Shown here one piece after another: positions 648 to 19,880 of a DNA stretch of 21,283 bases. Position numbers and translations under genes: made by a program. Location of the stretch: positions 1-21,283 of the forward strand of contig JAHLVW010000048.1 in assembly GCA_019058275.1 (NCBI GenBank), written 5' to 3'. Position 1 is the stretch's first letter; every line of letters starts with the position of its first letter. Origin of the DNA: Candidatus Heimdallarchaeota archaeon. Lineage in GTDB: Archaea > Asgardarchaeota > Heimdallarchaeia > JABLTI01. The notes below the pieces were generated by a model. The model ran no database searches and was not told where the DNA came from. It saw only the letters and a list, made by a program, of their open reading frames with translations.

Positions 648-692
648 AAATGTAGAATTTTTGCACCCACTTCTTCTTGAATGGCTAAAAGT
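648..692 (+). repeat. Array repeat copy 1 (left arm type A, short right arm)
   Basis: AAATGTAGAATTTTTGCACCCACTTCTTCTTGAATGGCTAAAAGT, which matches the start of copies 2, 5 and 7. Confidence 0.85.
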
Positions 693-762
693 AGTATATA
701 ATCATAATACAATTTGTGTTTTTGATAATAAAAAATATAGTCTATTCATACTCTGTCTAATT

Positions 763-2181
763 ATGTTAATTCCAACTGATAAGAATAGAACTGATTGCTT
801 TTATTGTCAGGATATAGTTAAAGAAGAAAAAAACTACCCAATAAGGATTGGAAAATACAGCTCAGAAGGACTGGTAAATCGCTGCCTTTGGCACTCAAAG
901 TTCCAGTGCTCGGAATGTAAAGGATTTTTCCATTTTAGTTTCCTTTATTGGTGTCCGACAGCTAATCAAATAATCTGTGGAAAATGCAATAAACCAACTC
1001 TTTACCCAACAAAATTTTGGAATAAAACATATGCTTACGCTTTTGATTGTAAAATTTGTGAAGAACCTCATTTTGATCTCTTATATGCTGAATATACAGG
1101 TAAACACCCATGGCAAATCAATACAAAGAAATTGTACAAGGAAGAGAATGCATTAATACCTATAGTGCAAATTCGTTTCCCTTGGGAACCAATTTGGAAA
1201 CCAGCAGATTTACGGAAAGGTAAAGAAATTACAGTAGAGGAAGCATTGAAAGCAGACAATATAATTCATTCTTATCGAAAACAATCAGGGAATGTTACAT
1301 TTCATTCAGATGTTTTCGCAGATGAAAAAATAGATCTTTCTGATACAAGAGATAGATGGGAAAAAGCAAGTCATACATTTATGCAGTATTATGATAATAT
1401 CGAAGATAAGGGTGATGGAAATAGAAGATTAATTATTGATCCAGCTCTTTGGAAACAAATGGGGGAAATAAAAGGGTTAAGAATATTAGATGCTGGATGT
1501 GGAAATGGATACTTAGCAAGAGAACTAGCTAGAAAAGGAGCGAAAGTAGTTGGTATCGATTTCTCAAAGAATTTCATCGGATTTTGTAGGAAAAAAGAGA
1601 AAGAAGAATCCTTGGGATGTGAGTTCCACATAGGATCATTAACTAATATGACCATGTTTGAATCAGAGTCATTTGATATGGTTGTGTCAAATATTGTTAT
1701 GGTTGATGTTCAAGATTACAAAGCAACATTTAAAGAGATTAGTAGAATCTTAAAACCAGAAGGGAGATTTATTTGGTCAAATCTTCATCCTGTCTTTGGA
1801 TCTAACAATCAGATTTTCTTCAGACTGCCTTTTGACACACCTAGAAATGAAGAAAAATTATTCATACTAATTGACAGATATTTTGATTCCGGTGGATTAT
1901 TAGTTTCATGGGCGAAGAATAAACCAGTCTGGCAATTTCATCGTACACTACAAGAATATACACAAGCACTTTTTGGAGCTGGTTTTCTGATTAGAGAAAT
2001 CATCGAACCCAAACCTGTTCTTGAAGATCTGAAAGATAATCCTAGATCTTTGGCCTTTGATTCTGATCGAAGACCAATTTTTATTATATATGATTGTGTA
2101 AAAAAAAATGTAGAATCACTGCACCCACTTCTTCTTGAAGGGCTAGAAGTCCAGGTTGGTAATGACATGCTGAAGTGGTAA
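763..2181 (+). CDS. Class I SAM-dependent methyltransferase with an N-terminal Cys/His-rich (putative Zn-binding) domain
   Basis: Motif I ILDAGCGNG, followed by VVGIDFS, FDMVVS and RILKPEG. The N-terminus has CFYC, CSEC, CGKC and CKIC. Likely start is ATG 763 because the tracked start at 661 lies inside repeat 1. The last ~25 codons are read-through into repeat 2. Confidence 0.85.
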   Translation: MLIPTDKNRTDCFYCQDIVKEEKNYPIRIGKYSSEGLVNRCLWHSKFQCSECKGFFHFSFLYWCPTANQIICGKCNKPTLYPTKFWNKTYAYAFDCKICEEPHFDLLYAEYTGKHPWQINTKKLYKEENALIPIVQIRFPWEPIWKPADLRKGKEITVEEALKADNIIHSYRKQSGNVTFHSDVFADEKIDLSDTRDRWEKASHTFMQYYDNIEDKGDGNRRLIIDPALWKQMGEIKGLRILDAGCGNGYLARELARKGAKVVGIDFSKNFIGFCRKKEKEESLGCEFHIGSLTNMTMFESESFDMVVSNIVMVDVQDYKATFKEISRILKPEGRFIWSNLHPVFGSNNQIFFRLPFDTPRNEEKLFILIDRYFDSGGLLVSWAKNKPVWQFHRTLQEYTQALFGAGFLIREIIEPKPVLEDLKDNPRSLAFDSDRRPIFIIYDCVKKNVESLHPLLLEGLEVQVGNDMLKW

Positions 2182-2200
2182 GTACCTGCTGGCTGAGCAT
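2106..2200 (+). repeat. Array repeat copy 2 (type A left arm, full right arm)
   Basis: AAATGTAGAATCACTGCACCCACTTCTTCTTGAAGGGCTAGAAGTCCAGGTTGGTAATGACATGCTGAAGTGGTAAGTACCTGCTGGCTGAGCAT, with internal inverted pair CCACTTC (2125-2131) / GAAGTGG (2172-2178). Confidence 0.95.
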
Positions 2201-3582
2201 TAAAGACTAACAGGATTTTCTAAGGGATATGGATCAGTATTATTTCCACCATCTATTTCGTAGATTACTCCTTCATTCCAAACAATATCAGACCAGTAAT
2301 TACCTCCATTTGTACTAATATCATACCAGTAAATCGCTTGATCATGATAATGTGGTAAACTTGTATTTTCAAAAACTTGGGCAATGCCTGAAGGCATTCC
2401 AGCAAGGTTGTTGTAATAAAAATTATTTTGATAGAATAAATTTAAGTACCCAATATATTCAACATAAATACCATATTCAGTATTATTTGCGAATAGGTTC
2501 CTAGTTAAAATTACAAAGTGATTATCATCGAAGAAAAGTCCATTTTGATTCTTTTGAATATAATTGCTAGAAAGTGTAATATTTATACTATATTTAATTG
2601 TCACTCCAGTATTTACATTCGAACTAAAATTATTGCCTAGCACTGTGACAAGTTCTGATGAATCAATAAATATTCCATCTCGATTATTACAAGAAGTATT
2701 ATTTACAATTAGTAGATTATATACATTGAGAACCCTAAGTCCAGGATTTGTACAATTGTTGATTATATTATTGCTAATTGTTGAATATCCAGAACAACAA
2801 ATCAGTAAACCTGTTGTTATTCTGTTATTATTTACCAAAACTTGATCTGAGAAATCAATTTTGAGGTAGCCACATTTATTGTTAATAATTCTGGCAAGGG
2901 AACAATTACTAATATCAATTTTATTTTGAACAGTATTATTTTCTAGAGAAAGAGCAATTGAATTCTCTATGAGAAGTGTTCCATGAAAGAGCTGGTTGTC
3001 AATTATCTTGCAATTTCCAAATGCAGTTCCTCTCACATAAATTGTATTTCTACTTGCATGAATGGTACAGTTACGAATTAAAAAGAAATTCTTAGAATTT
3101 CTTATGTAGATACCATATGTTTTTGTTGTATTTATGTGTAAATTTTCAATTAAAAACGGATTATTTTCTGAACCATCTCCAGAAAAACCATATAATGATT
3201 TGTAATCCCTATCATTGAGTATAACGATTTCTCCCATATCTCTTCGTTCTTGATTAACTTGCCATAAAGTAAAAGGTATTGCTAATCCTGAACCTAAGAT
3301 TAAAATTACAAAGAAAAACCCGAAAAGAGAGCAGCCCCAAAGATTAACATTCTTATTTTTTGCAAATGAAAACCAGGTAATTAATGGAGTATAGACAATG
3401 GCCATTATACCCAGAGCAAAACAAGTAAAAGATATACCAAAAGATTCTCCAAAAGTATAATTTGGATCACTAATTCCACCTGTAAATTTTAAAATAAAGG
3501 GAACAAGAAATAAAGAGACGAATAAGGAAAACCCAATTAGTAAACTAATTAAAGTTTGTTTTTTCATTTGTGTCTTACTCAT
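2200..3582 (-). CDS. Membrane-anchored NosD/CASH-type right-handed beta-helix protein
   Basis: Three N-terminal TM segments, GDGSENNPFLIENL, Asn-rich beta-helix repeats (NNxxGIxI) and the C-terminal GGNYWSD...DPYPL typical of archaeal NosD-domain proteins. The stop codon abuts repeat 2. Confidence 0.85.
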   Translation of the reverse strand: MSKTQMKKQTLISLLIGFSLFVSLFLVPFILKFTGGISDPNYTFGESFGISFTCFALGIMAIVYTPLITWFSFAKNKNVNLWGCSLFGFFFVILILGSGLAIPFTLWQVNQERRDMGEIVILNDRDYKSLYGFSGDGSENNPFLIENLHINTTKTYGIYIRNSKNFFLIRNCTIHASRNTIYVRGTAFGNCKIIDNQLFHGTLLIENSIALSLENNTVQNKIDISNCSLARIINNKCGYLKIDFSDQVLVNNNRITTGLLICCSGYSTISNNIINNCTNPGLRVLNVYNLLIVNNTSCNNRDGIFIDSSELVTVLGNNFSSNVNTGVTIKYSINITLSSNYIQKNQNGLFFDDNHFVILTRNLFANNTEYGIYVEYIGYLNLFYQNNFYYNNLAGMPSGIAQVFENTSLPHYHDQAIYWYDISTNGGNYWSDIVWNEGVIYEIDGGNNTDPYPLENPVSL

Positions 3583-3675
3583 AAAATCAGTCCTCTATTT
3601 CTATTATTACCTATTAATTACATTTCTAATAAACACTCTCTCTTGATAGTTTAGAAACAGTTAACGGAAAAAATT

Positions 3676-3729
3676 GATGCGACAGGACTCACACTTCTTC
3701 TTTAAGGTCTAGAAGTCCAGTTCGGTAAT
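3676..3729 (+). repeat. Array repeat copy 3 (type B left arm, truncated right arm)
   Basis: GATGCGACAGGACTCACACTTCTTCTTTAAGGTCTAGAAGTCCAGTTCGGTAAT. Confidence 0.95.
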
Positions 3730-3730
3730 C

Positions 3731-3763
3731 AAAGAAAGGATTATATATCGCAAGACCTTAATA
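3731..3763 (+). promoter_or_regulatory. Putative archaeal BRE/TATA promoter shared with 10371-10401
   Basis: Purine-rich AAAGAAAG followed by TATATATCGCAAGACC (3742-3757), identical over 16 bp to 10380-10395, about 40 bp upstream of ATG 3782. Confidence 0.6.
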
Positions 3764-3781
3764 TGTATGAGTTGCACGAGG

Positions 3782-4461
3782 ATGAAAGGTTTAAGCAAGA
3801 TCCAAGTAGGATTTCTAGTACAGATTTTATTTATTTTGCTAATTTTTACTAATTTAATTAATATGTTCAAAATATGATTGATGAAAACGAAATGCCTGAA
3901 GATTATAAAAAACTGGAACTTGTAGCATATAATATTACCTGGAAATTAGCTGATCCTGCTTATTATGCAGATACTTGTAAAAATTACTCAGTTTTTGAAT
4001 TAAATGTTGATTTTAAAATAAATAATTCAAACAACTATATTGTTAATATTACCTTTTGTTGTGGATTGGAATTCTTCCGTGTGAATGTAAGCGCAGACTT
4101 AAGAAATATAAGAACAAAGGTCATAGACTGTAATGTTTTTGCAGCTTTTCAATCAATTACTACAATTCACATACAACAAGGAATCACTCATAGGACAACA
4201 GTTTCATATTTAGGTTTTAGTGATCCAAACTTAACTGAGCTGCCAGATAGCGAATATATTATTTGGTTAACACTTTTTCAATTTGGTGAAACCTATACAG
4301 ATTCAACTCGAACAAAACTAACTATTAGGAATGGTTTACCGTCGTTTGAATATAACTACATTCCAACAATAAACTTACCAATCAAAATTTCCACTATACT
4401 ATGTTCTCTATTAATAGTGGCTTTTGTAATTCAATATAAAAAAACGGAAAAAATGACTTAA
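3782..4461 (+). pseudogene. Exported/membrane-anchored hypothetical protein, paralog of 10414..10956; signal peptide split off by a 1-nt frameshift near 3860
   Basis: ATG 3782 encodes MKGLSKIQVGFLVQILFILLIFTNLIN. Adding one T at ~3860 joins it to YVQN-MIDENE of ORF 3874..4461. There is a C-terminal TM segment and basic tail. Motifs shared with the paralog: NITWKL/NLSWSI, FELNVDFKINN/FRIDADYQINN, IQQGIT/IEQGIT, LPDSEYIIW/LPDGKYSFW. Confidence 0.65.
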
Positions 4462-4597
4462 ATTTACTGTTAATTTCAATTAATTTTTTAAATTATTTTT
4501 TCTCTAGCAGTCTTTTTATTTTGACTTTAGATAAAAAGTAATCTAAGAATTGAATTGTTTTATCCTTTGTAATTTTATGATTAATTACTAATCACCA

Positions 4598-4984
4598 CTA
4601 GTTAATTAATTTAAGTTTCTGAAATTTTTTTAATAATTTAATTGGTGTTTGTGTTCCAGATGTACTTTCTATATTATAAAAAGACAATAGTTTCATAGAC
4701 CAAATGGAAATATATTCTTCATTGGAAGGTAGTTTGACAATTGAACCTTTTTCCTTACCAAAACTATAACTGAAATGATTATGTTCAATTTCTACTGGCC
4801 ATTTAATTCCTGGATGTATTGGTTTGGGTAATATAATTAGACTTTCACTAAAAACTGATGAATTGTTAATTATAATTATACTATTTCTTGTATGCATTTC
4901 ACCATTAATCAAACGTTCAGCTGTTTCAATGAAATAATTTGAATCTTTATTTAGTGCTGATACAAAAATGAAATCTAAACTCAT
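4598..4984 (-). CDS. Hypothetical protein, possibly a 5'-truncated remnant
   Basis: 128-aa ORF with no recognised motif. The frame is open for a further 16 codons upstream (IAASVVVTFTTTSNKN) before a TAA. Confidence 0.35.
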   Translation of the reverse strand: MSLDFIFVSALNKDSNYFIETAERLINGEMHTRNSIIIINNSSVFSESLIILPKPIHPGIKWPVEIEHNHFSYSFGKEKGSIVKLPSNEEYISIWSMKLLSFYNIESTSGTQTPIKLLKKFQKLKLIN

Positions 4985-5089
4985 GTTTTTATTGGAGGTT
5001 GTGGTGAATGTAACTACTACAGAAGCTGCAATTTAAAATTTTACAAACCATCAAGAAGTTGTTGATTAGTATTAATTGAATTTTTTCTT

Positions 5090-5117
5090 AAAAAAAAAGC
5101 TCTTCAAAGAGAAGAGC
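5090..5117 (-). terminator. Hairpin plus oligo-T terminator of the 5122..5835 gene
   Basis: Perfect 7-bp stem GCTCTTC (5099-5105) / GAAGAGC (5111-5117), followed on the minus strand by T9, 4 nt after the stop codon. Confidence 0.7.
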
Positions 5118-5121
5118 CACT

Positions 5122-5835
5122 TTAAATATAAATAGCCATACTATCCATTACATTATACCAAGCAGAATCTGGGTATTCATATGATGTTGCCCAATTATCA
5201 TAAGGATAAGGTCCAAAGAACCCATATGTGAATTCACCATCATCATGCCAATCGGAATATTTTTGAATGCTTCCATAGTTAGAATCATCTATTCTAAACT
5301 TGAGAATACATCCATAATAAAGGCAGATATTCATTTGTTGATTTAGATCAATAATTCCACCACGGATACCAACAAATTTGTCATCGTAATCATTTGGATA
5401 ATCAAATGATTCAGTTTTATAAGCATGGATATGATACCGTCCATTGCCTACAGGATCTGTTGTTGCATCATCAGTTGTGATCCAAAGTCTTTCCCATAAA
5501 TTTCCATAGGGATTGAAAATGTCTACTTGAAAGTTCTTAGTAAAGGATAAATCGTAGAAATAATCAATTTGTGCAATATAAGTTATTCTCCAACCATCAT
5601 TAGACAATAAATATTCTTTAATGACATAATGTATTCTAGTACCATCACCAGTACTTATGTACCCTTCGTCATAATTGTATACCCATATTCGTTTGAGAGT
5701 TGCAGTTATTGTACCTCCTCCACCCACACCAGGGTCTAACTCAATTGGTGGAGCTATTACTATACTAACAGTAGGTATAAGAATTGCTAAGAAAAATATT
5801 GAAAAACCAATCAAATTCATTTTTTTTCTCATCAC
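5122..5835 (-). CDS. Secreted hypothetical protein (signal peptide, PGVGGGG linker, Tyr/Asp/Trp-rich body)
   Basis: 237-aa ORF with a basic then hydrophobic N-terminus and a GAGGTG RBS-like sequence at the start. It is followed by a terminator. Confidence 0.7.
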   Translation of the reverse strand: MMRKKMNLIGFSIFFLAILIPTVSIVIAPPIELDPGVGGGGTITATLKRIWVYNYDEGYISTGDGTRIHYVIKEYLLSNDGWRITYIAQIDYFYDLSFTKNFQVDIFNPYGNLWERLWITTDDATTDPVGNGRYHIHAYKTESFDYPNDYDDKFVGIRGGIIDLNQQMNICLYYGCILKFRIDDSNYGSIQKYSDWHDDGEFTYGFFGPYPYDNWATSYEYPDSAWYNVMDSMAIYI

Positions 5836-6085
5836 ATCACCTCGAATTTTTTTGGTTGATAAAATCAGATTGAAATGATTTAATAAGATTCTTAGGGGAT
5901 TTACCCAAGGATAAGAATTCGAAAAATCAATTTTTACTGGTTCTTAGTTCTATTTTTAGGATTCTTATCGAAGTATAAAAATGTAATGAAAATCAGCTTC
6001 AGAAATTTCACAAAAATTTAATAAATATGGAGAGAATATGTTTGTTAAAAGGAAAAGTTGGGATTTTTGTTCTTGAGGGTATTAA

Positions 6086-7846
6086 ATGTCTTCCAGAATT
6101 GCTATTGGAAAAATTACTGAAAAACAATTATCTAAAGAATTCTTCCAATATTTTAAAAAAATATCTGCATTTTTAGATGCTCAAGTGAAAAAAATTAAAA
6201 TGAAAGTAAAAATACAGAAAGCAGATTCAGATGTTGTAATTCATGACTATGGAAAAGGTTTTGGCGTGATCACCGAAAATGAACAAATAATTTTAGCTAA
6301 TTGGTTGTTTAATTTACCACAACGTGAAAAGGAGATACTATTAAAATTCTTATTAATAAGGGAAGGATTTCGAGTTCATTTTAATAATCAAATTAAATCA
6401 TCACATTTTTACAATGATTTGGTTGAAATCTTGTTAAATATTATTGCAGCTCTTTGGATAATTAATGATCGAGGATATAAGCTTGGAAGTCCACAAGTGA
6501 TAGATATTCGTGGACGGATAGCTTTCGATGATACACAAGTTTTCAATCATAATTATTGGGAATGGGTTTTACTCGATTGGTACAATTATAGATTAAGCAC
6601 AATGGAATTATTTAATAAATTAGTCTCGAGCATTAATTTAGCTATTGAAAAAAAATTTTCTTTGAAGCATCTTGTTGATGATTTTAAATCATGGTTAGAA
6701 AACCAAGTTCAGAAGGTATTTTTACTAGCATTACCATTAAGCTTGAAGAAAAAAAAATTTGATATTATTAAATCAATGATTACTTTAGGTTATGATAAAT
6801 CATCTGCTAAAGAAGTAGGAAAATTAGTTAATCGAAGCTATAATGTGGTTGATATAGCTTTTAAAGAATTATTTGAAAAATATCAAGTCTATTGGCGGGC
6901 AAATATTAATCTTCCATTAATAAGATTATATCCTTATTATTTTAGAATAACTCTTAATGATAAAAAATTCAAATCACAGTTAATCAAGAAGTTTAAAACA
7001 ATTCCTTATCTAAAAGAATTAGATGAAAGCTTTTCTAAAAATAAACATACTCTTGCAGGTTTTTTGGAGAGTCCTCATTATATTCCTGTTAGTTTAGAAG
7101 AATATTTCGAAAAACTCGTTCGAAAAAAAATTGCGGACAATTTCTTTTGTCAGATGATAAGAAGAAAAACACTGTATACCACAATTACAACAGAGAAATT
7201 AAAACCAAATAAAGAAACATATAAGCAAGTGTTTGAAAATCCAAACAAAGAGAAAAATCTGACATTAACTATCCTAGATGATCGTTTTGATATTACAAAA
7301 CCTCCAAAGGAAAAGAAAGCAGTTTTTGATGAGAATGTTCTTAATTTCATTACATTAATTAAGGCTCGCTATTTAGGGAAAGCTCATTATATGTTATCAC
7401 CTCTAACAAAAGTATATGAATTTTGCAAGAAAAATGACATTGATTCTATTGATTCATTGGCTGTTAAATATTTCTTGAATCAATTAGATATTAGATGTAG
7501 AAGATTAGGCTTAATAAATTACTTCCTGAATATTCAGAATATTAGTAATTATGGTGATGCTTTGTTCTTTGAATTACAAGAGGATCCTAAAAGTGATTTG
7601 TCTATGTCTATTATTGAAAAAGCAAAAATCTTTTCTCCTATGATTGTTAAAGAGTTCTTTCAGAGAACAGCTATTTTGTTTCCAAAAGTAAGTATAAATA
7701 ATCCTCTTCGTGAAGTGTTAGAGGAATTTATTCGTAATATTGGTGTTGAATTTTCAACATATCATTTCAGCTATTATAAAGAATATTTACCTGATGTGCT
7801 CTATATCGATTTATATGATTTTGAAGAAAATCGATGGAAATTCTAG
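6086..7846 (+). CDS. Large soluble protein with a central HTH/Lrp-AsnC-like region; putative transcriptional regulator
   Basis: 586 aa. SAKEVGKLVNRSYNVVDIAFKELFEK followed by INLPLIRLYPYYF resembles a wHTH plus Lrp-type linker. It is divergent from the secreted-protein gene. The family assignment is inference. Confidence 0.5.
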   Translation: MSSRIAIGKITEKQLSKEFFQYFKKISAFLDAQVKKIKMKVKIQKADSDVVIHDYGKGFGVITENEQIILANWLFNLPQREKEILLKFLLIREGFRVHFNNQIKSSHFYNDLVEILLNIIAALWIINDRGYKLGSPQVIDIRGRIAFDDTQVFNHNYWEWVLLDWYNYRLSTMELFNKLVSSINLAIEKKFSLKHLVDDFKSWLENQVQKVFLLALPLSLKKKKFDIIKSMITLGYDKSSAKEVGKLVNRSYNVVDIAFKELFEKYQVYWRANINLPLIRLYPYYFRITLNDKKFKSQLIKKFKTIPYLKELDESFSKNKHTLAGFLESPHYIPVSLEEYFEKLVRKKIADNFFCQMIRRKTLYTTITTEKLKPNKETYKQVFENPNKEKNLTLTILDDRFDITKPPKEKKAVFDENVLNFITLIKARYLGKAHYMLSPLTKVYEFCKKNDIDSIDSLAVKYFLNQLDIRCRRLGLINYFLNIQNISNYGDALFFELQEDPKSDLSMSIIEKAKIFSPMIVKEFFQRTAILFPKVSINNPLREVLEEFIRNIGVEFSTYHFSYYKEYLPDVLYIDLYDFEENRWKF

Positions 7847-7965
7847 TTTATACTAAATTAAAACCTGTACAACTTTGAAATCGGGGTACAATTACTTAAA
7901 TTAAAACAAAACGTTAATGATGGAAATCATTAATGAGGATTAACTTGTCGGGTTTTTTGGAAATA

Positions 7966-8472
7966 TCATTCTATTGGTGCACCACAATTTGAACAGAATT
8001 TCTCATTAAAATTCAAAGCTTTACCACATGATTGACAGAATTTCGATTCACTTTTCGATATAGATTCAGCTTGTATTTGAATTGTATCTGTAGCATCCAT
8101 AGATTGTACTACAGTTGATCTGTAAATATAATATCTAATTGTTGAAATAATAGCAGTCATTACATTGAGTCCAATTATTAACCATACCCACCAATCATTA
8201 TAATCCCACTAGCCAGCTGCAAGAATTCCAATAATATAGAATAATAAGATTACGATTAGCAAAAACATCCATGAGCCTAACATAGAAATGAAACGTGGTC
8301 TTCTTCCCCGTCTATCTACAATAAATTTTATTGTTGCTGACAAAGCGAATATTAGTAAAATACCTCCAACAAACCAAATCCACCAATCTGCTATAGTAAA
8401 CCATCCTGCTGCTAGAATTCCTATAAGTCCAAAGAAAAACATCCAAAAAACAAAAATTGACCATGGCATCAA
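7966..8472 (-). pseudogene. Membrane protein with duplicated TM-hairpin motif and C-terminal zinc ribbon, interrupted by an in-frame TAG at 8209-8211
   Basis: ORFs 8209..8472 and 7966..8160 are in the same frame, joined by WDYNDWWVWLIIGLNV. Internal repeat GILAAGWFTIADWWIW versus GILAAG*WDYNDWWVW. C-terminus FCQSCG...FCSNCG. Confidence 0.8.
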
Positions 8473-8582
8473 TAGAAAACTGATTAGTAAACATTAAAAG
8501 AACACTAAATCTGGTCAAAGGGTCATAATCTTTGGTATAATGTTTAAAATCTTCATGTGAAATAGAAAAATAATCAAATAAA

Positions 8583-8668
8583 GATGCACACTCACACTTC
8601 TTCTTTAAGGACTAAGTCTGTTTCAGAAAGGACACGCTTAGGTGGGAAGTATCTGCTGGCTGAGCATC
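8583..8668 (+). repeat. Array repeat copy 4 (B-like left arm, full right arm, diverged centre)
   Basis: GATGCACACTCACACTTCTTCTTTAAGGACTAAGTCTGTTTCAGAAAGGACACGCTTAGGTGGGAAGTATCTGCTGGCTGAGCATC, with terminal GATGC/GCATC inversion. Confidence 0.95.
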
Positions 8669-8786
8669 TCGCCCGAAGAATATATAAAAAATATATTCTA
8701 ATGTCTATATGATAAGGAAATGAAAAGATTATTTGTTTTGAGCATTGAAGCTTTTATTGCAGAAGGATCAAAGAGATGGGATAGAA

Positions 8787-9704
8787 ATGAATACGAAAAC
8801 CCTAAATGAGCGTTTAAATGAAATAAAGAAAAATTTAGATTCAAAGCCTTCAAAATTTGAATCATTCCAAACTAAATTTGGTCAAGAATTTGAAGAAAAT
8901 TTTAAGGATTTGACAGGTTTTGTAACTAACATAGGAATTTTACAATTTTTTATGGAAACAATATCAAATATAATCAAAAACATCACAAGTAAAGCTAAGA
9001 AAGAAGTTCGAGGAAAAATGAGGGAAATCGTAGAACAATCTGAAGAATCACCTGAAAAGATTGATGAAATAGAGAAAAAAATAGATGAAGCCATTAAAGA
9101 TGATGAAAAGAAAGAGAATTCTTTTGCAGAATTTTTCAATGTATTGAAAAAAGAAAATATTTTCGATCGAATAAACTCATACTTCTTCTTAACATTTTAT
9201 ACTTACATAGATTTATACACAATATCACTATATCAACATGTTATCTCTAAAATAGATGTTACAAAAGTTTACGATGTTATTGATGGATTTAAGCCTTCCA
9301 GTAATCCTTCTGATAGATTAAAACAAATTCTCAAGAAGCTTGAATTAAAAGACAAAAAAAATCTTTATGAAAAATTGGATTTAGTAAGGAATTTCGAAAG
9401 TGATTTTATAAATTTCATAAAATTAAGGAATTCAATTGCTCATAGAGAACCATTAACTACATATCAAACGATAAAAAAGAATTTCCCAAAAATAGCAAAA
9501 AAGGCTAAAAAAATAAATGAGAAACAATCAAAAAAAACTGATTTAAAGGAACTTGAGAATCATATTAATAGAGAAAATATGATTCAGAATTTTGAGATAT
9601 TAACTGCTCTCAATTTAATAGCAGTTAACTGTTATATTCTTCTTGCAATGGTTGATTATTTGATAATTGAATTCTTTAAGGAGAATCAACAGCTTGAAAT
9701 ATAG
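8787..9704 (+). CDS. Helical protein with HEPN-like Rx4H motif (putative RNase)
   Basis: FIKLRNSIAHREP in an all-helical, coiled-coil-rich protein. ATG 8787 is preferred over the tracked TTG 8745. The stop TAG is supplied by the TAGAAT at the start of repeat 5. Confidence 0.6.
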   Translation: MNTKTLNERLNEIKKNLDSKPSKFESFQTKFGQEFEENFKDLTGFVTNIGILQFFMETISNIIKNITSKAKKEVRGKMREIVEQSEESPEKIDEIEKKIDEAIKDDEKKENSFAEFFNVLKKENIFDRINSYFFLTFYTYIDLYTISLYQHVISKIDVTKVYDVIDGFKPSSNPSDRLKQILKKLELKDKKNLYEKLDLVRNFESDFINFIKLRNSIAHREPLTTYQTIKKNFPKIAKKAKKINEKQSKKTDLKELENHINRENMIQNFEILTALNLIAVNCYILLAMVDYLIIEFFKENQQLEI

Positions 9705-9767
9705 AATTCTTGCACACACTTCTTCTTTAAGGGCTAGAAGTCCAGTTCGGGAAGGACACGTTGAAGT
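9697..9767 (+). repeat. Array repeat copy 5 (type A)
   Basis: AAATATAGAATTCTTGCACACACTTCTTCTTTAAGGGCTAGAAGTCCAGTTCGGGAAGGACACGTTGAAGT, filling the whole gap between two convergent stop codons. Confidence 0.95.
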
Positions 9768-10027
9768 TACATTTGTTTATAAAATTCATCAATTGGAATT
9801 TTAGCTAACCGAAGAGCTCCTCTTAAGGTTCCTGGTTTGAGTTCTTTATGGAGTGGAATCACAGTGCCAATCTTGCCATCTTTGGATTGTTTTGAAAGAC
9901 GAACATGACTACCTTTGCGTCCAGTTATGGTAAAACCGAATTTATTACATAAAATCTTAATGACTTTCTCACCAGAAATTGGTTTATACTTTGGCAGTCT
10001 TATCAACTTCCTTAGGTGAAATCTCAA
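9767..10027 (-). CDS. hicA: HicA family toxin (mRNA interferase)
   Basis: PISGEKVIKIL...FGF...RKGSHVRL...VIPLHKELKPGTLRGALR. The true start is probably nearer 9997-10006, overlapping the hicB stop. Confidence 0.9.
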   Translation of the reverse strand: MRFHLRKLIRLPKYKPISGEKVIKILCNKFGFTITGRKGSHVRLSKQSKDGKIGTVIPLHKELKPGTLRGALRLAKIPIDEFYKQM

Positions 10028-10220
10028 AAGTAGTAATGATAGGATGACTTTCAGTTGTTAATGGAAATTCTTCGAGATATAACTCAGTTGCTTCAATTAA
10101 ATTTGCCAAAGCTTCTTCAATTGTGTCTCCTTGGCTTACAGTACCAACCTGAGGGCATTCAGCAACATACATATCCTCATCCTTGTAAATAACAGCTGTC
10201 AATGTAGACATCTTGATCAT
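9984..10220 (-). CDS. hicB: HicB family antitoxin (short form, no DNA-binding domain)
   Basis: YVAECPQVGTVSQGDTIEEALANLIEATELYLEE, GAGGT RBS-like sequence upstream, overlaps hicA. Confidence 0.9.
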   Translation of the reverse strand: MIKMSTLTAVIYKDEDMYVAECPQVGTVSQGDTIEEALANLIEATELYLEEFPLTTESHPIITTFEISPKEVDKTAKV

Positions 10221-10296
10221 TCTTTATTACCTCAACTTAATTCTTTAATTTTCTTATAAAAACCAAACTAATTTACTTGAAAAAAAAAGCAGTGAT

Positions 10297-10351
10297 GATG
10301 CAACAGGACTCACACTTCCTCTTTAAGGTCTAGAAGTCCAGTTCGGCAATG
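10297..10351 (+). repeat. Array repeat copy 6 (type B, truncated at the same point as copy 3)
   Basis: GATGCAACAGGACTCACACTTCCTCTTTAAGGTCTAGAAGTCCAGTTCGGCAATG. Confidence 0.95.
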
Positions 10352-10370
10352 TAAGAAAATAATGGAGATA

Positions 10371-10401
10371 AAAGAAAAGTATATATCGCAAGACCATAAT
10401 A
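10371..10401 (+). promoter_or_regulatory. Putative BRE/TATA promoter shared with 3731-3763
   Basis: AAAGAAAAGTATATATCGCAAGACCATAATA, with the TATA-like box ~34 bp upstream of ATG 10414. Confidence 0.6.
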
Positions 10402-10413
10402 TAACAACTTGTT

Positions 10414-10956
10414 ATGGGAAAGATTAAAAGATATTTACTAATGAATTTTCTAATTCCACTACTAATTACAGGGAGTACGTTCTTAGTTATTTCACAAATA
10501 CAAAACACTAAGGATATAACAATACATATAACAAATCTTTCATGGTCGATTATAGAAAATGAGTATATAAATGAAAACAATACAAAATTCAGAATAGATG
10601 CTGATTATCAAATAAATAATAAGAAAGGTGAAAATGTTTATCTCGATTATACATGTATAACAAATTATTTTTTGCTAAATTTTAAATATAAATCGATAAA
10701 TCAATTCCAAGAAATTATTGTAAATGGAAGTAATTATGGAAGTCAGCCATCTTGTAATAAGCTCATTATTGAACAAGGTATTACAAATGGATCAACATTT
10801 ATGTATTGGGAGATAGAACAAAAAAAATATGAAACGCTGCCTGATGGAAAATATTCTTTTTGGATAGTATTATTAGATTATGGGGAATCATATTTTAAAT
10901 CTAAAAGGTTAAGACAAATTATTAGAGATGGATTACTAATATTTGATTTTCCATGA
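10414..10956 (+). CDS. Exported hypothetical protein, paralog of 3782..4461
   Basis: N-terminal signal/TM segment and the shared motifs listed for the paralog. It lacks the paralog's C-terminal anchor. Confidence 0.75.
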   Translation: MGKIKRYLLMNFLIPLLITGSTFLVISQIQNTKDITIHITNLSWSIIENEYINENNTKFRIDADYQINNKKGENVYLDYTCITNYFLLNFKYKSINQFQEIIVNGSNYGSQPSCNKLIIEQGITNGSTFMYWEIEQKKYETLPDGKYSFWIVLLDYGESYFKSKRLRQIIRDGLLIFDFP

Positions 10957-11049
10957 AAAGTTCTTTTTTCCTTCAAGACTATAATAAACCTTAGCAAAGT
11001 AAAAGTGCTTAAGAAACAACTAACAATGAGAATTAACAAAAATCAAAAA

Positions 11050-11127
11050 AAATGTAGAATCACTGCACCCACTTCTTCTTTAAGGTCTAGAAGTCCAGTT
11101 CGGTAATGACACGCTTAGGTGGTAAGT
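11050..11127 (+). repeat. Array repeat copy 7 (type A)
   Basis: AAATGTAGAATCACTGCACCCACTTCTTCTTTAAGGTCTAGAAGTCCAGTTCGGTAATGACACGCTTAGGTGGTAAGT. Confidence 0.95.
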
Positions 11128-11178
11128 GTAAAGAAATAATAAAAGTGATTTCTTAATTGGTCAGTAATTAATAGAGTG

Positions 11179-11523
11179 CTACTGTTCTAGAGTTTGAAGA
11201 AGAGCCAGCAATTTAGGTTTGAGGATAGGAATTTCTATTTTTATTACTTCCCAAGTAAGCTCAAGGTCTACCCCAAAATATTGGTGAATTAAGATATCAC
11301 GCATACCAGCGACCTGTTTCCAAGGTAAATCAGGATTCTCTTCAATAACACTATCAGGAAGGTTCTTCACAGATTCACCAATGATTTCCAATCTTCGAAT
11401 AACAGCATCTTGTAATTGAACAGAAGCAAGAAATTCTTTTTTACCTTTGTTGGATAAATATTTCTCGATTAACTTGAGAGATTCCAACATATGTTGAATG
11501 AAAAATTTTGGTTGCTTAACCAT
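11179..11523 (-). CDS. HEPN (DUF86/HepT-like) RNase toxin of an MNT-HEPN pair
   Basis: DAVIRRLEIIGE and PWKQVAGMRDILIHQYFGVD (Rx4HxY). ATG 11523 overlaps the MNT stop. Confidence 0.92.
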   Translation of the reverse strand: MVKQPKFFIQHMLESLKLIEKYLSNKGKKEFLASVQLQDAVIRRLEIIGESVKNLPDSVIEENPDLPWKQVAGMRDILIHQYFGVDLELTWEVIKIEIPILKPKLLALLQTLEQ

Positions 11524-11815
11524 AAATAACCACTTCTTCACTGAGAATTGAATCTTTAATGAGTGGATGAATGGAGTTGTAAGTCAGAACATCAACGTTA
11601 CAATGAAGAATGTCTTCAAGGGCAAATTTCAAATCAACTAAGTCGAACAAACTTTTCGTTCCTGAAAATTCCACTAAAAGATCAAGATCACTAGTATCAC
11701 TAGCATCACCTCTCACTCGAGAACCGAATACTGATGCTTTTACGACATCATATCTTTGTAATACTGGTAAGATTTTTCCTTTAATGTCTTCTAATGATTG
11801 CTCCATACTAACCAC
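11516..11815 (-). CDS. Minimal nucleotidyltransferase (MNT/MntA-like) antitoxin
   Basis: VFGSRVRGDASDTSDLDLLVEF (GSx10DxD) and NVDVLT. Confidence 0.92.
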   Translation of the reverse strand: MVSMEQSLEDIKGKILPVLQRYDVVKASVFGSRVRGDASDTSDLDLLVEFSGTKSLFDLVDLKFALEDILHCNVDVLTYNSIHPLIKDSILSEEVVIYG

Positions 11816-11900
11816 TTAGCTCTAATCCTTTTATCTATTTATTTACTTTATATGTAATAAATTTGTTTGGAATCAAGTAGAGTAACAAGAAAAATAAAAG

Positions 11901-11962
11901 TTCTAGCACTCAATTCCTCTTTCAGAACTAGAAGTCCAGTTCGGGAAGGACACGCTGAAGTG
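11901..11962 (+). repeat. Array repeat copy 8 (degenerate A-like left arm)
   Basis: TTCTAGCACTCAATTCCTCTTTCAGAACTAGAAGTCCAGTTCGGGAAGGACACGCTGAAGTG; the right half is nearly identical to copy 5. Confidence 0.9.
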
Positions 11963-12065
11963 AAGAATATTAGTTCATTTTACCGAAAAGTAAAAGAGTT
12001 TTGTTGTTTCTTTTTAATATATATTTCTGGGTGGGTGTAAACTGAAAACAGATAACAAAGCTGTT

Positions 12066-12272
12066 TTGATGATTATTTTTATTATAATTGCAGTGGTGTC
12101 AGGTTTTGGTCTTCTTTGGGGAATCACGATATTAGCATGGACAGGAGAATATGGATGGATCGCATTAATTGTGGGATCTGTTGCAGCCATCATTGGAGCG
12201 GTATTTGGTATTTTCAGAATTTTACTTAGAAAAAGAATTACAACTACTAAGAGAGAAAAAGAATCCTTATAG
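12066..12272 (+). CDS. Small two-TM membrane protein with basic tail
   Basis: 68-aa ORF with two hydrophobic helices and RKRITTTKREK; the only ORF between repeats 8 and 9. Confidence 0.6.
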   Translation: MMIIFIIIAVVSGFGLLWGITILAWTGEYGWIALIVGSVAAIIGAVFGIFRILLRKRITTTKREKESL

Positions 12273-12438
12273 AAATAACCTTATCTGATTAGTTGTAGCA
12301 ATAGAGTCTTGTGCTGGAGCAGTACTATCTTATTTCTAAGTGTATAAAGCTCTCATCTTACTTGGATATTTCATATCATAGCACTTCTTCATTAAACTCA
12401 ATATTAATTCTTTATCAAAAAAAATACATAAAATAATT

Positions 12439-12468
12439 GATGCTCAGGACTCACACTTCTCCTTTAAG
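12439..12468 (+). repeat. Array repeat copy 9 (type B left arm plus core only)
   Basis: GATGCTCAGGACTCACACTTCTCCTTTAAG, 13 bp from the SDR stop codon. Confidence 0.9.
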
Positions 12469-12481
12469 AGGAGTAAATTCG

Positions 12482-13318
12482 TCAAGAATCTCTTTTTTTT
12501 CTTCTATAAGCTTTCGAGAAATCAATTTCTTCTGGAAGATGTAAAACTCGACCTTCCATACCACCTGCAATGGTAATGATCTCACCAGAAATGTGACCTG
12601 ATAATTTGTCTGATGCCAATACTGCAATCATATTTGCAATATCTTCTGATTCTGCAATCTTTTTCAAGGGAACAGTTTTCAAAATATGTTTTATACCTTC
12701 TTCATCGTCAAGATATTTTTCTGACATTGGAGAGACAGTCCAGCCGGGACAAACAGCATTAACTCGACCCAATCTTGCCACATTAATAATCTCATTTTTT
12801 AGGCTTCTAGTTAAGCCATAACTTATGGCAGCTTTTGCTGCAGCATAATCAGCATGACCTGCTGCTCCAAAAACAGCAGAAGTAGAACCTACAATAATAA
12901 TACTAGCAGACTCACCATCATATTTTCGAAGTTGTTGTATAAAAGAACGACAACATAGGAAGACACTATCAAGATCCATTGCCATGGTATGGTTCCATCT
13001 CTCCAAAGTCATTTGTTCAATTTCAATGTAGTCTTCCGGCCAGATAGCAGCATTACAAATAAGGATATCAATTCGACCTTTTTTCTTCTCAATTTCCTTA
13101 AATATTTCAAGAACTTGAGATTCACTCAAGAGATCAGCTTTAATACTAAAAGTCTTTTTGCCTAATTCATTAGTTAATTTCTTAGCTCTAATTTCACTAC
13201 TATTGTAATGAACTATAACATCAACACCTTCTGCAGCAAGTACCCGAGCGGTAGCTGCACCAATACCACCTGAAGCACCAGTTATGAGTGCCACTTTTCC
13301 TTCAAGTTCTAAATCCAT
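12482..13318 (-). CDS. Short-chain dehydrogenase/reductase (classical SDR, FabG-like)
   Basis: ITGASGGIG, IDILICNAA, catalytic S...YAAAK, RVNAVCPG. Confidence 0.95.
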   Translation of the reverse strand: MDLELEGKVALITGASGGIGAATARVLAAEGVDVIVHYNSSEIRAKKLTNELGKKTFSIKADLLSESQVLEIFKEIEKKKGRIDILICNAAIWPEDYIEIEQMTLERWNHTMAMDLDSVFLCCRSFIQQLRKYDGESASIIIVGSTSAVFGAAGHADYAAAKAAISYGLTRSLKNEIINVARLGRVNAVCPGWTVSPMSEKYLDDEEGIKHILKTVPLKKIAESEDIANMIAVLASDKLSGHISGEIITIAGGMEGRVLHLPEEIDFSKAYRRKKRDS

Positions 13319-13406
13319 CTCTATCGATTTTTATATGATTTAACCAAGTAATTAGTTTTGGCATTGATTGTTATAGTTAAAGAAATTTAAAAACGATAAA
13401 GTAGTT

Positions 13407-13437
13407 GATGCTCAGGACTCCCACTTCTTCTTTAAGG
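13407..13437 (+). repeat. Array repeat copy 10 (type B left arm plus core only)
   Basis: GATGCTCAGGACTCCCACTTCTTCTTTAAGG, 6 bp from the stop of the next minus-strand gene. Confidence 0.9.
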
Positions 13438-13443
13438 CTTGAA

Positions 13444-13838
13444 TTAAATCTCTAAGAGTTGCTTAGCTAAACGAATTTGATGATTTTGACGATACCAGAA
13501 GTAAAAACAGATAATAAGAAGTAAGTAGAAAGAGAAGGGAAGAAGAGGAAGTAATATCATAGAATCAACAACACCAAGAAAGAAATAAAAAATACTAAAA
13601 AGTAAAAAAGCTATGGAACCTAAAAAACTAAAGTAAGAGCATAAGAAAGAGAGAAAGAACGATCGTAGGTGAGCTGCAATTTCTGAAAGTATCGATGAAT
13701 GAAAAAAATAATTATAAATATAATAGCAGCAACCATAAGGGAAATACCAAGAAACGAGAAACCTCGAAGAGTATCAAACCGTAGAGGATGAGGTATAACA
13801 TTCAAGACTTTTAGAAAATCAAAGAAAATGAATGACAT
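13444..13838 (-). pseudogene. ~130-aa multi-TM membrane protein, frameshifted in a T6 run near 13622-13627
   Basis: ORF 13620..13838 continues, with one extra T, as LGSIAFLLFSIFYFFLGVVDSMILLPLLPFSFYLLLIICFYFWYRQNHQIRLAKQLLEI* to TAA at 13446-13444. Confidence 0.7.
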
Positions 13839-14030
13839 CCTCTAATTAATCCCTATTTATTCAAATACTAATATCATATTTGTAGTCCTATTCAAATAAA
13901 GATTTTCATAAAACAAAGAAAACTCTGAATTAAACACTTAAGATCTTTTAGTAATTAGTATAAAATAAATTTTTAGATATTAACATAATATATTTATTTC
14001 TGGGGATACACCTTTACCTATTGTTAGGGA

Positions 14031-16919
14031 TTGATCTTGGTGGGAAAAGAGAAGATTAAAAAAGGAAAATCAGGATTAGGTAACTTTCTTAAAATCTATC
14101 TAAAGAATACTAAAAGAAATGTATTAGTTAATATTATTACGAGTGCAATAATCTTCTCAGTAATAGCTTCCATTTTCTTTATATGGAATGCTGAAAAAAA
14201 TGATAACTTAATTGATCACTTATCTGATACGTCAATTTGGTCTTCTGATAATAAATTCAGTGTTTCATATAGTACCATCAAAGAAAATTATAATGCAAAT
14301 TATAGTCCAACATACCTTGATGACATGGCATTAGAAATCAAAGGACAAATAAATTCGATATATCAGACATCACTGATTAACAATAATTTTTCTGGTTTGA
14401 TGAGTCTTGAAGTGTATGCTTTTAATGACACAGTACCAAGTGGTATTCATGGAGATTACCTAACATTCACATCAAATGTTGATAACATCCTTAACCAGAG
14501 TCTTGTATCTGGTCGTTTACCTGAAAATAATTCTGAGATTTTATTTCTTTATCAAGAAAATTCTACATATAATTTCGAATTAAACAGTCAAATCACTCTA
14601 AAATTAGGTCGTTATGAAGACATTCAGAAGAATTTTACTATAAGCGGTATAGTTAAAGATTTATCTGGGAATTTAACATCAAATGGTTTATCAAGTGAAA
14701 TTTTAAACTGGCATGAGAATATAGAAAACTGGCGATATATGTATTCATCTGAAATTAGCTTCATTTCAATGCCGCCAAGCTATTTTTTGAATTTAAACGA
14801 GTTTTCCACAATTGATTATGGTCGTGCAGTTGTTATTGATTATAATTATGATACAACTAATATTAATGCTCCAAAATTAGTTAGTTATATTTCTAAACAT
14901 CAAAAATTAATTAATGGTGAAATTAAGCTTGAAACTGAACCAAGTGAATTCCTAGTAATTTGCAATGATCTTTATGATACACTATCATTGTTTGTGGTTA
15001 CTCAATTAATTGAAACTATAAAGATAATTACCCTAATTTTCCCCTTAATCTTATCTGCATATATTCTTATCAATGAGATTTCGGGTTTTGGCAAAGTTAC
15101 ATCAATTTCAACACTTAATAAATTCAAAATAATAGGCAAAAACAATAAGGAATTAAGGAATATAGTACTTTACAAAAACCTAATTGTTTTTTCATTCGGA
15201 TCAACATTTGGCTTGATATTAGGTTTCTTTGTTAGCTATTCAGTTAAAGCAATCTATTATCAAAATGTTACACTAGCTAACTTTATGCTTACAATTATTG
15301 ATACATTTTTCTTACTGTTTACAATTACATCCTTTGTATTAATTCTTTTTAGTGGTTTATTTAAAGAAATAAAATTGCTTAATAATCTCAAAGATGAAAA
15401 TCTAAAGCTAAATGATCCAAGTAAAATTGAAAAGAAGAATCGGATTTTTAAATTACCTGAATTACTGGTACTAACTTTTGGTTTAGTGTTGGTAATTCCA
15501 AGCTCAATAATTTTTTCAAGAAGTTCAATTCAAAACCCGACAATTGTAGATACTAGTTTTTTAACCCAAAATGTAATTTCAATTATAGCCTTTATTATAT
15601 TATATTTTGGCGCTTTTCTATGTATTATTATAGTTATTATAATTATAAATCGATTAATTGTCCGATTATTTGATATTATAAATCGGGATAATTGGCCTTA
15701 TAAAAAGAATATTTTTACTTATATCGTAAAGAATATTTCAACATCAAAAGAAATTTACTCAAAAGTAATGTTTCTTACATTCTTAATTTCATTTGGATTA
15801 ACTCCAGGCTTAACTATAACTAAATCTGTTAATAATCATATATCATTAGAAAGCAAATTGGCAACTGGATGCTCTGACATCATTATAAATAATTGGGATA
15901 AAAATCCTATTCCAACATCAATTATCGAGGGTATTAATGGAATTGATAATGTTACATTTATTACAATTTACTATATTCATCATCACTTAGGAACAAGGAA
16001 TATCATAATTAATATGGCTGCAATACATAATTTAGAAGAATTCATAGCTATAGCAAATATAGAAGAATTAGGGAAGATAGCATATACAGAAGATGATATT
16101 AAAAGATTGGAAAATAACCTTTCATATTTGATGGAGAAAAAATTTGCTAAGAAGTACAATTATGATAAAGGCACCACCATCCTAAGCAATAATTTCTTTG
16201 GACCAAAGTCAAAAATAGTCTTTCTTAATTTCGCAGGTTATTTTGAATATTTTCCAACATTACCTGTTCCAATTAATGATGATTATGATCCTTACTCATT
16301 AACGTCAACCAACAGTATAGTTACTTCGTTAAATACAGCCTTATTGCTTGAAGAGTCTGCTACGATTTCTCATGAGAAGGAAATTAAAATACTGGTAAAA
16401 ACATCACGAAATAATAATTCACAACAAGTATGTGATTATCTAATTAACAATTATAATCTGGAAGCATTCACTGAAGAAAGCATTGCACAAATAATTACAA
16501 TAAATACAAATTCATTTTTCATCAAAGTTACACTATTGCTATCTTTCCTACAAATTATGATATCAATAATTTTTGGTTTGATTGTTTCCAAAAGTATATA
16601 CCAAGAAAGATTAGCAATGGTAGAAATTGAATATAGAATTGGTATCAGTAAAAGAAAGATCAGCAACCGTTTAGTACTTGAGATCATATTATTGGTATTC
16701 ATTCCACTAGTTTGTTCAATAATTAGTAGTACTATTTTAGTTTCTAGAATGGCAAGGTCTCTTATACAGATAATTCAGGAATATTTGAACTTTAGTTTAT
16801 GGTTACCCTGGTGGATGATTGTAGTGATTTTCTTATTTTCATCATTTTTGATAATTTGTAGTACTTTCCTTGGAATTGAATCACAATTAAAGAAATATAA
16901 ACCAGTTAAAACAGAATAG
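14031..16919 (+). CDS. ABC transporter permease, FtsX/MacB-like (duplicated topology)
   Basis: TM, large extracellular domain (LVSGRLPENNSEI), TM bundle, second extracellular domain and C-terminal TMs (QER...RIGISK); upstream of the ABC ATPase. Confidence 0.85.
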   Translation: MILVGKEKIKKGKSGLGNFLKIYLKNTKRNVLVNIITSAIIFSVIASIFFIWNAEKNDNLIDHLSDTSIWSSDNKFSVSYSTIKENYNANYSPTYLDDMALEIKGQINSIYQTSLINNNFSGLMSLEVYAFNDTVPSGIHGDYLTFTSNVDNILNQSLVSGRLPENNSEILFLYQENSTYNFELNSQITLKLGRYEDIQKNFTISGIVKDLSGNLTSNGLSSEILNWHENIENWRYMYSSEISFISMPPSYFLNLNEFSTIDYGRAVVIDYNYDTTNINAPKLVSYISKHQKLINGEIKLETEPSEFLVICNDLYDTLSLFVVTQLIETIKIITLIFPLILSAYILINEISGFGKVTSISTLNKFKIIGKNNKELRNIVLYKNLIVFSFGSTFGLILGFFVSYSVKAIYYQNVTLANFMLTIIDTFFLLFTITSFVLILFSGLFKEIKLLNNLKDENLKLNDPSKIEKKNRIFKLPELLVLTFGLVLVIPSSIIFSRSSIQNPTIVDTSFLTQNVISIIAFIILYFGAFLCIIIVIIIINRLIVRLFDIINRDNWPYKKNIFTYIVKNISTSKEIYSKVMFLTFLISFGLTPGLTITKSVNNHISLESKLATGCSDIIINNWDKNPIPTSIIEGINGIDNVTFITIYYIHHHLGTRNIIINMAAIHNLEEFIAIANIEELGKIAYTEDDIKRLENNLSYLMEKKFAKKYNYDKGTTILSNNFFGPKSKIVFLNFAGYFEYFPTLPVPINDDYDPYSLTSTNSIVTSLNTALLLEESATISHEKEIKILVKTSRNNNSQQVCDYLINNYNLEAFTEESIAQIITINTNSFFIKVTLLLSFLQIMISIIFGLIVSKSIYQERLAMVEIEYRIGISKRKISNRLVLEIILLVFIPLVCSIISSTILVSRMARSLIQIIQEYLNFSLWLPWWMIVVIFLFSSFLIICSTFLGIESQLKKYKPVKTE

Positions 16920-16934
16920 GAGAATAAAAAGAAG

Positions 16935-19877: not shown

Positions 19878-19880
19878 GAA

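Follow-up and report, generated by a model that had tools for sequence, protein, structure and literature searches.

How is a run of unrelated small genes in an archaeal genome cut into units by one and the same short repeat, and by what means have these units been moved? The question is raised by contig JAHLVW010000048.1 of the Candidatus Heimdallarchaeota archaeon assembly GCA_019058275.1, whose full 21,283 nucleotides are referred to below as the window. Between positions 648 and 13,838, a first-pass annotation made from the letters alone had recognized ten copies of a ~91-bp repeat at gene boundaries and had proposed an integron-like cassette array built on a recombination site other than attC. 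The outline of that proposal was right; however, the repeat proved to be a copy of the 23S rRNA 3' end plus trailer, the window lies in the middle of the array, and none of the recombinases found is linked to an array. For the comparisons, the window is contig C38 of genome G000, and ten congeners were included, giving 11 genomes of the genus. The genomes compared are incomplete metagenome-assembled genomes (MAGs), with a completeness of 92.8% for G000.

A profile search with nhmmer recovered the ten annotated copies, all on the plus strand, with starts at 646, 2102, 3669, 8573, 9696, 10291, 11047, 11888, 12430, and 13398. The spacings between them (1456, 1567, 4904, 1123, 595, 756, 841, 542, and 968 bp) agreed with the unit sizes that had been proposed. 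With up to two mismatches, the 15-mer CACTTCTTCTTTAAG matched the plus strand of the window ten times against 0.15 matches expected by chance. Nine of these matches were reported copies, and the remaining one lay at 12382, whereas the copy reported at 11901, with three mismatches in its core, was recovered by the profile and not by the 15-mer pattern.

The identity of the repeat emerged from comparison with the rRNA genes. The rRNA models placed G000 in the Heimdall group of Asgard archaea. Its sole 23S gene, located with such a model, occupies positions 98488–102769 on the plus strand of contig C98. The last bases of this gene, together with about 60 nt behind them, are the reverse complement of the window repeat and match the consensus base for base. 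Judged by this match, the ten repeats are orphan copies of the 23S rRNA 3' end plus trailer (hereafter, tails), lying antisense on the plus strand of the window, and not the anonymous, undescribed element they had been taken for. A search of the whole window against Rfam with E-values up to 1 returned zero matches. The 23S gene itself spans 4282 nt against a model of 2987 positions and therefore contains ~1.3 kb of insertions, either expansion segments or introns; a 185-aa open reading frame (ORF) is also located inside it.

In the 23S sense, every copy shares a 15-nt core, CTTAAAGAAGAAGTG. Upstream of the core, the copies in the window keep 0 to ~45 nt of the 23S 3' end, those elsewhere in G000 keep 75 nt or more, and those in the congeners keep up to 150–160 nt. 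The distal arm downstream of the core is of two main types: type A, the commonest, reads TGTGCAGTGATTCTACA followed by a T-run, and type B, TGAGTCCTGAGCATCA, is the real 23S trailer of G000. Each of the two is the true 23S trailer of some species in the genus. In five species, the true 23S tails agree base for base to the end of the core, beyond which they part at once. The changes CCTTCCCGAAC(T/C)GG occur in about half of the orphans genome-wide, whereas each of these five true tails reads CATTACCGAAATGG there. The orphans therefore form a sequence lineage of their own and are not fresh copies of any sampled 23S gene.

The tails have neither the boxes nor the folding of an attC site. No pair of RYYYAAC...GTTRRRY boxes with a spacing of 50–160 nt was present on either strand in the whole window, in agreement with the earlier view that the repeat is not of the attC type. 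The description of the repeat as palindromic did not hold: single-strand folds of five copies were no better than those of shuffled sequences (z from −0.17 to +0.53), and RNAalifold predicted 0 pairs, and thus no consensus structure, on 45 aligned copies. The sole inverted motif in the repeat is a short hexamer pair, ACTTCT...AGAAGT.

The distribution of the tails revealed a single island. In G000, 57 copies were detected by nhmmer (E<1e-3) and 65 by a sequence-only covariance model (R1), all of them confined to six contigs: C35, C38 (the window), C75, C80, C98, and C99. Within each contig the tails are co-oriented, save one reversed mini-array on C98. The array on C98 begins at the 23S gene and continues to the contig end, and the last 141 nt of the window (C38:21143–21283) are the exact reverse complement of that end (C98:130045–130185) and are identical to C99:1–141. 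Contig C99 is a 92% variant of C98, and in the 23S sense either one leads into the right end of the window. This overlap with a tail-bearing contig places the ABC operon at the right of the window inside the array, as a unit of 9.1 kb between two tails, and not at its border, where it had been put at first. On the strength of the same overlap, the window is best described as an internal stretch of an island that starts at the sole 23S gene. In addition, C75:1–119 is identical to the reverse complement of window positions 2104–2222 and then diverges; therefore, the tail at 2140 is followed by a second continuation as well, either within the population sampled or at another place in the genome. 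The array stretches sum to more than 100 kb (~3% of the genome). No conserved distal anchor was found past the last clear tail on C80 (from 17.5 kb), a region that is not syntenic in the congeners. The far edge of the island is blurred because the DNA beyond this tail is non-syntenic and shares genes with the cassettes. No recombinase was present among the genes upstream of the 23S gene or past the C80 edge.

This distribution bears on one explanation in which the repeat is an ordinary dispersed element of the repetitive extragenic palindrome (REP) or miniature inverted-repeat transposable element (MITE) type, or the locus a classical integron whose attC sites are unusual. The repeat is indeed short, intergenic, and present in many copies, as this explanation would require. 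However, the copies (E<1e-3) are confined to six contigs of one island, are co-oriented, and are homologous to the 23S tail; the scatter over the genome in both orientations, which the first-pass annotation had named among the observations that would speak against a cassette array, did not occur. Nor does an integron account for tails that lack attC boxes and structure: no IntI was found in G000, where the best score against TIGR02249 was 38 bits, compared with a cut-off of 265, and did not fall on an array contig. A dispersed repeat was accordingly rejected, and the explanation as a whole, to which we assign a negligible probability, is already refuted by the distribution of the tails and their homology to the 23S gene end.

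Comparison with the relatives showed that the units between tails are mobile. Tails are present in all ten congeners, with 1–40 assembled copies each and fewer in fragmented assemblies, yet none of these genomes is syntenic with the window at the DNA level. The unit encoding a short-chain dehydrogenase (SDR; window 12439–13437) recurs tail to tail in congener G005, at 96% and 88% identity, and in G003, at 90%, with different neighbors and a different 23S-side arm in front each time; a paralog with 81% identity lies within G000 itself (C98:55169–56654). An all-against-all comparison of array stretches from seven species revealed many common cassettes whose neighbors switch at a tail. The units behave as cassettes reshuffled at the tails between relatives, and the idea of a cassette-like array was thus substantiated by the absence of synteny and by the recurrence of cassettes in new contexts.

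Beyond the genus set, 52 further loci with 145 tails were identified in public genomes and metagenomes, and 36 of the 37 multi-tail loci were co-oriented. The public contigs with the exact 27-nt tail pattern all came from MAGs labeled Heimdallarchaeota or Promethearchaeati, bar one labeled Bathyarchaeia. The latter contig, DATKZI010000020.1, carries a true-looking 23S tail of the genus, and its MAG is probably a mislabeled or mis-binned record. In two closed one-contig genomes of the same class, orphan tails were absent: the 23S tail of each genome matched nothing beyond itself and the complementary strand of the leader. Thus, the feature is not universal in the class and is lineage-restricted.

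Folding of the 23S transcript offered a possible view of the core. The 23S trailer is predicted to pair with the 23S leader in a long processing stem, of which it forms the 3' strand. The core supplies to this stem the central-helix strand CTT, the 3-nt bulge AAA, and the outer-helix strand GAAGAAGTGTG, and the fold predicts it to be the trailer half of a bulge-helix-bulge (BHB)-like site. It could be argued from this that the role of the orphans lies at the RNA level, where they would persist as trailer halves of the splicing-endonuclease (BHB) site and give processing or termination signals in read-through transcripts or, in a variant, as alternative 3' "splice" partners joining the 23S leader to a downstream cassette. 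The position of the core at the predicted 3-nt bulge and outer helix would suit such a role, as would the T-run that ends the A-type arms, which is terminator-like in archaea, and the cutting and religation of archaeal pre-rRNA at BHB motifs; a study of 23S circularization reported Asgard 23S circles (PMC12918454). However, the orphans have lost the inner-helix pairing with the leader (18 pair-keeping vs. 194 pair-breaking changes), and A-to-G changes are not clearly favored over G-to-A per site, so that no clear wobble bias is seen. Of the cassette ORFs of at least 70 aa, 145 run in the direction of the tails and 112 against it (56% vs. 44%), and the antisense share speaks against an RNA role. 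Furthermore, an RNA role leaves the copying of the tails and the switching of neighbors unexplained, and no reverse transcriptase was found in G000. We consider this explanation improbable.

The junctions of cassettes found in two contexts bear on how exchange proceeds. At the upstream end of such a cassette, the core and the distal arm travel with it, and the sequence before the core is unrelated; at the downstream end, it is the 23S-side arm that travels along, and what follows the core differs between the contexts. In a change-point model, the 5' boundary fell mostly between the core and +20, and the 3' boundary anywhere from −46 to +29, with patchy arms; the mapping was ungapped, about one-third of the pairs were spoilt by indels (values of ±59–60), and only the remaining pairs were used. 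The asymmetry of the boundaries, the variable arm lengths, and the mosaic arms fit homology-guided exchange or gene conversion, and they fit a single fixed crossover less well.

These observations suggested a model in which exchange between 23S tails is guided by homology, through general recombination and gene conversion; we give it about an even chance of being correct. The island, which extends over ~100 kb or more from the sole 23S gene, is divided by about 60 co-oriented tails, and the units between them have a median length of 1.2 kb. These units would move, be lost, and be swapped across species via recombination inside the tail. As an intermediate we infer a circle: two tails would recombine, and the circle looped out would carry one tail. 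It could then re-enter at any tail, including that of the 23S gene itself, whereby the tail would be duplicated. Selection on rRNA processing would keep the tail similar from one species to the next and so make it a portable stretch of homology, with which no dedicated integrase would be needed.

Several points weigh against homology-guided exchange. The pairwise identity of the orphan cores is 0.8–0.97, compared with 0.3–0.65 for the flanks, although the orphans no longer serve rRNA. Such conservation is what a recombinase site would predict; alternatively, it could come from concerted evolution of the only segment common to all tails. Some tails (window 12468 and 13436) have hardly anything left besides the core and ~16 nt and still bound cassettes, and this length is short for homologous recombination. 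The first acquisition of a tail by a new gene is also left unaccounted for, and an enzyme linked to the arrays could have remained unassembled, since the genomes are incomplete. As the core is the best-kept part, near-armless tails bound cassettes, and true tails diverge right after the core, a core-specific enzyme remains a serious rival.

Such an enzyme would be an unlinked, trans-acting recombinase with the 15-nt core as its recognition site, at which cassettes without an integrase would be inserted or excised; attI would then have its counterpart in the tail of the 23S gene and attC in the orphan tails, and the island would be an integron analog or a cis-mobilizable array. We regard this as a possible but rather unlikely account. 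It would explain why the core is the only segment common to all tails and is kept much better than the arms, why the true tails of five species agree through it and no further, why several 5' boundaries of cassettes map between the core and +20, and how tails almost without arms can still delimit cassettes.

The search for the enzyme itself gave little to support it. The first-pass annotation had placed it outside the window, and the window indeed encodes no recombinase; however, none could be linked to any array in the 11 genomes. No tyrosine recombinase (PF00589) was found on any tail-bearing contig of the genus, and no recombinase at the 52 public loci. Those of G000 sit on C55, C5, C9, C20, C36, and C78, none of which is an array contig; the ORF on C5 (C5:1–660) is cut by the contig start, so that 219 aa remain. 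A tblastn search of all G000 recombinases against more than 80 array loci gave no match, the two serine resolvases of G000 are small and lie on non-array contigs, and family searches of this genome detected neither an HUH Y1 transposase nor a reverse transcriptase. One candidate deserves mention, a 352-aa tyrosine recombinase (C55:205722–206777) present in a single copy and composed of a SAM-like N-domain and a catalytic domain. Orthologs with 64–70% identity are present in 7–8 of the ten congeners, and a search of 50 other genomes of the class yielded none. This phyletic match favors the candidate but is confounded by descent; any genus-specific gene would show the same pattern, so that the lead is weak. 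In congener G007, a second integrase fragment (C37:502–999) adjoins the ortholog of this recombinase. The enzyme could otherwise belong to an unknown family.

The tails themselves also argue against a core-specific enzyme. The 3' boundaries are spread over ~75 nt in mosaic arms, the tails have no inverted binding arms around a 6–8 bp spacer and no conserved structure, and those with 150–160 nt of 23S sequence exceed the length that a recombinase site needs. Since no recombinase is linked to an array and the breakpoints are scattered along the repeat, a dedicated enzyme is no likelier than plain homologous recombination. In a broader form, the proposal would be that several Asgard lineages run a new gene-capture platform, an integron analog of independent origin in which the BHB trailer half of 23S serves as the recombination site of a dedicated enzyme; we consider this form, too, possible but rather unlikely.

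A further explanation would be that many integrative elements (viruses, plasmids, or islands), each with an integrase of its own, independently targeted the 23S 3' end and then decayed, leaving the tails behind. When an integrase inserts an element at a tRNA or tmRNA gene, its footprint is a direct repeat of the 3' end of the stable-RNA gene beside the gene itself, and the lengths of the tails vary like att identity blocks. Against this, there are about 60 units with a median of 1.2 kb, and no integrase or fragment of one was found in the arrays of the 11 genomes. The viral contigs scanned with the 27-nt tail pattern gave 0 matches, and the cassettes carry housekeeping-like accessory genes of 104 families. 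Decayed elements thus seem to us a poor explanation, with a low probability.

Among 130 inter-tail units surveyed, the median length was 1239 bp, and 62 held a single ORF of at least 70 aa. The 114 array ORFs of G000 with Pfam matches represent 104 different families, including TPR proteins, methyltransferases, SDRs, beta-lactamase-fold proteins, ABC transporters, DUF433/DUF5615 pairs, radical SAM proteins, and DNA methylases.

The window illustrates this diversity; its tails all lie on the minus strand when read in the 23S sense. Tail 1 (646–716; core 668–682) has a degenerate 23S side and an A-type distal arm. The first cassette gene (661–2181, plus strand) encodes an S-adenosylmethionine-dependent methyltransferase, with the domain at residues 260–380 and an N-terminal half without a family. 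Among ten window proteins submitted to PADLOC, the methyltransferase domain gave the sole match (mad2), which we read as a domain-level match. Tail 2 (2102–2200; core 2126–2140), where C75 branches off, keeps ~40 nt of the 23S 3' end and precedes a gene for a right-handed beta-helix/NosD-like protein (2200–3582, minus strand). Tail 3 (3669–3753; core 3692–3706) has a short 23S-side arm and a B-type distal arm. The 4.9-kb unit behind it (3707–8594) comprises six ORFs of 195, 128, 237, 586, 64, and 87 aa; apart from a zinc ribbon in the 64-aa ORF, Pfam matched nothing in it, and the other five ORFs gave no match in the PADLOC scan. This unit is the largest unexplained block of the window.

Tail 4 (8573–8667; core 8595–8609) again keeps ~40 nt of the 23S 3' end and is followed by a 319-aa gene with no confident family (8745–9704, plus strand). 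A HicA/HicB toxin-antitoxin cassette (9767–10220, minus strand) lies between tail 5 (9696–9776; core 9717–9731) and tail 6 (10291–10369; core 10313–10327), the latter with a B-type distal arm, and a 180-aa gene without a family (10414–10956, plus strand) comes next. Tail 7 (11047–11131; core 11070–11084) is the top-scoring copy of the genome. Between it and tail 8 (11888–11974; core 11911–11925, with three mismatches) is a HepT/MNT (nucleotidyltransferase) toxin-antitoxin cassette (11179–11815, minus strand). Tail 9 (12430–12494; core 12454–12468) has almost no 23S-side arm, and the frame of the neighboring SDR gene (12482–13318, minus strand) passes through its core and ends at the TGA that opens the B-type arm. 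The core-like 15-mer at 12382–12396, with two mismatches and the same orientation, lies 72 nt from the tail at 12454 and may be a decayed, eleventh tail. Tail 10 (13398–13482; core 13422–13436) likewise has almost no 23S-side arm and carries a B-type distal arm. Beyond it, the part of the 9.1-kb unit within the window (13437–21283) holds a 72-aa gene, two FtsX-type permeases, and an ABC ATPase; the unit continues into C98 or C99, where the next tail is located. The window cassettes also include small membrane proteins.

Some features of C98 upstream of the 23S gene were also recorded. The reversed mini-array (C98:54451–56654) is found 45 kb upstream of the gene and comprises two or three tails. 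It is a paralog of window positions 12452–13922, with 81% identity; it may have been transposed or inverted out of the island or derive from a second strain in the bin. Closer to the 23S gene, an aldehyde:ferredoxin oxidoreductase gene (92349–93980) and a sulfotransferase gene (95757–96775) are each split into two adjacent ORFs, which could reflect a frameshift, a pseudogene, or recoding.

If exchange at the tails operates as proposed, the end of an essential rRNA gene doubles as the docking site of a ~100-kb island that outpaces species divergence, and Heimdall-group archaea, the nearest lineage to eukaryotes, would gain a means of importing and reshuffling accessory genes. The fragmentation of these genomes into short contigs behind the 23S gene would be explained as well. 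Integron finders and island finders do not look for such arrays. Full-text searches of the available literature returned no description of cassette arrays bounded by rRNA tails, which is not proof of novelty.

Among known systems, tandem islands and cis-mobilizable elements (CIMEs) at the 3' ends of tRNA and tmRNA genes resemble the island in that their direct repeats are copies of a stable-RNA 3' end, the intact gene stands at one end of the array, and integrase-less units lie between att-like repeats; successive insertions would push older copies outward. However, the target here is the 23S rRNA trailer and not a tRNA, the units are very small and number dozens, the arrays of 11 genomes contain no integrase, and the arms of the repeat are mosaic. 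A mobile element beside an rRNA gene has also been described in another Heimdall-group archaeon: HeimM2 of Ca. Heimdallarchaeum (Wu et al., 2022, PMC8813620) has a 16S rRNA gene on one side of its insertion site and a tRNA gene on the other. In contrast to the island, HeimM2 is one element of 8 kb, proposed to rely on a homing-endonuclease-like gene, and a term search of the paper returned no array of rRNA-tail repeats. The Xer-dependent pdif modules of Acinetobacter plasmids are likewise small accessory or toxin-antitoxin modules between short recombination sites and are moved by a host enzyme encoded elsewhere. The pdif sites, however, are 28-bp dif-like sequences in alternating orientation, whereas the rRNA tails are co-oriented and have no evident dif-like arms.

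Integrons, including classical IntI/attC integrons of archaea (Ghaly et al., 2022, PMC9668308), invite the closest comparison. Unlike them, the island has no IntI, attC boxes, or hairpin, its repeat is a copy of an rRNA gene end, and it is anchored on the 23S gene instead of attI/intI. Only 56% of its ORFs follow the direction of the repeat, while integron cassette ORFs run nearly all in one direction; its units reach 12.5 kb, and the boundaries of its repeats are variable, not exact. Nevertheless, like sedentary chromosomal integrons such as the Vibrio super-integron with its uniform Vibrio cholerae repeat (VCR) sites, clusters of attC sites lacking integron-integrases (CALINs), and archaeal integrons, it is a long array of co-oriented, similar repeats. 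As in integrons, its units mostly hold one or two genes, among them toxin-antitoxin pairs, methyltransferases, small membrane proteins, and proteins of unknown function, and the order of its cassettes varies between related species, with one and the same cassette occurring in several contexts.

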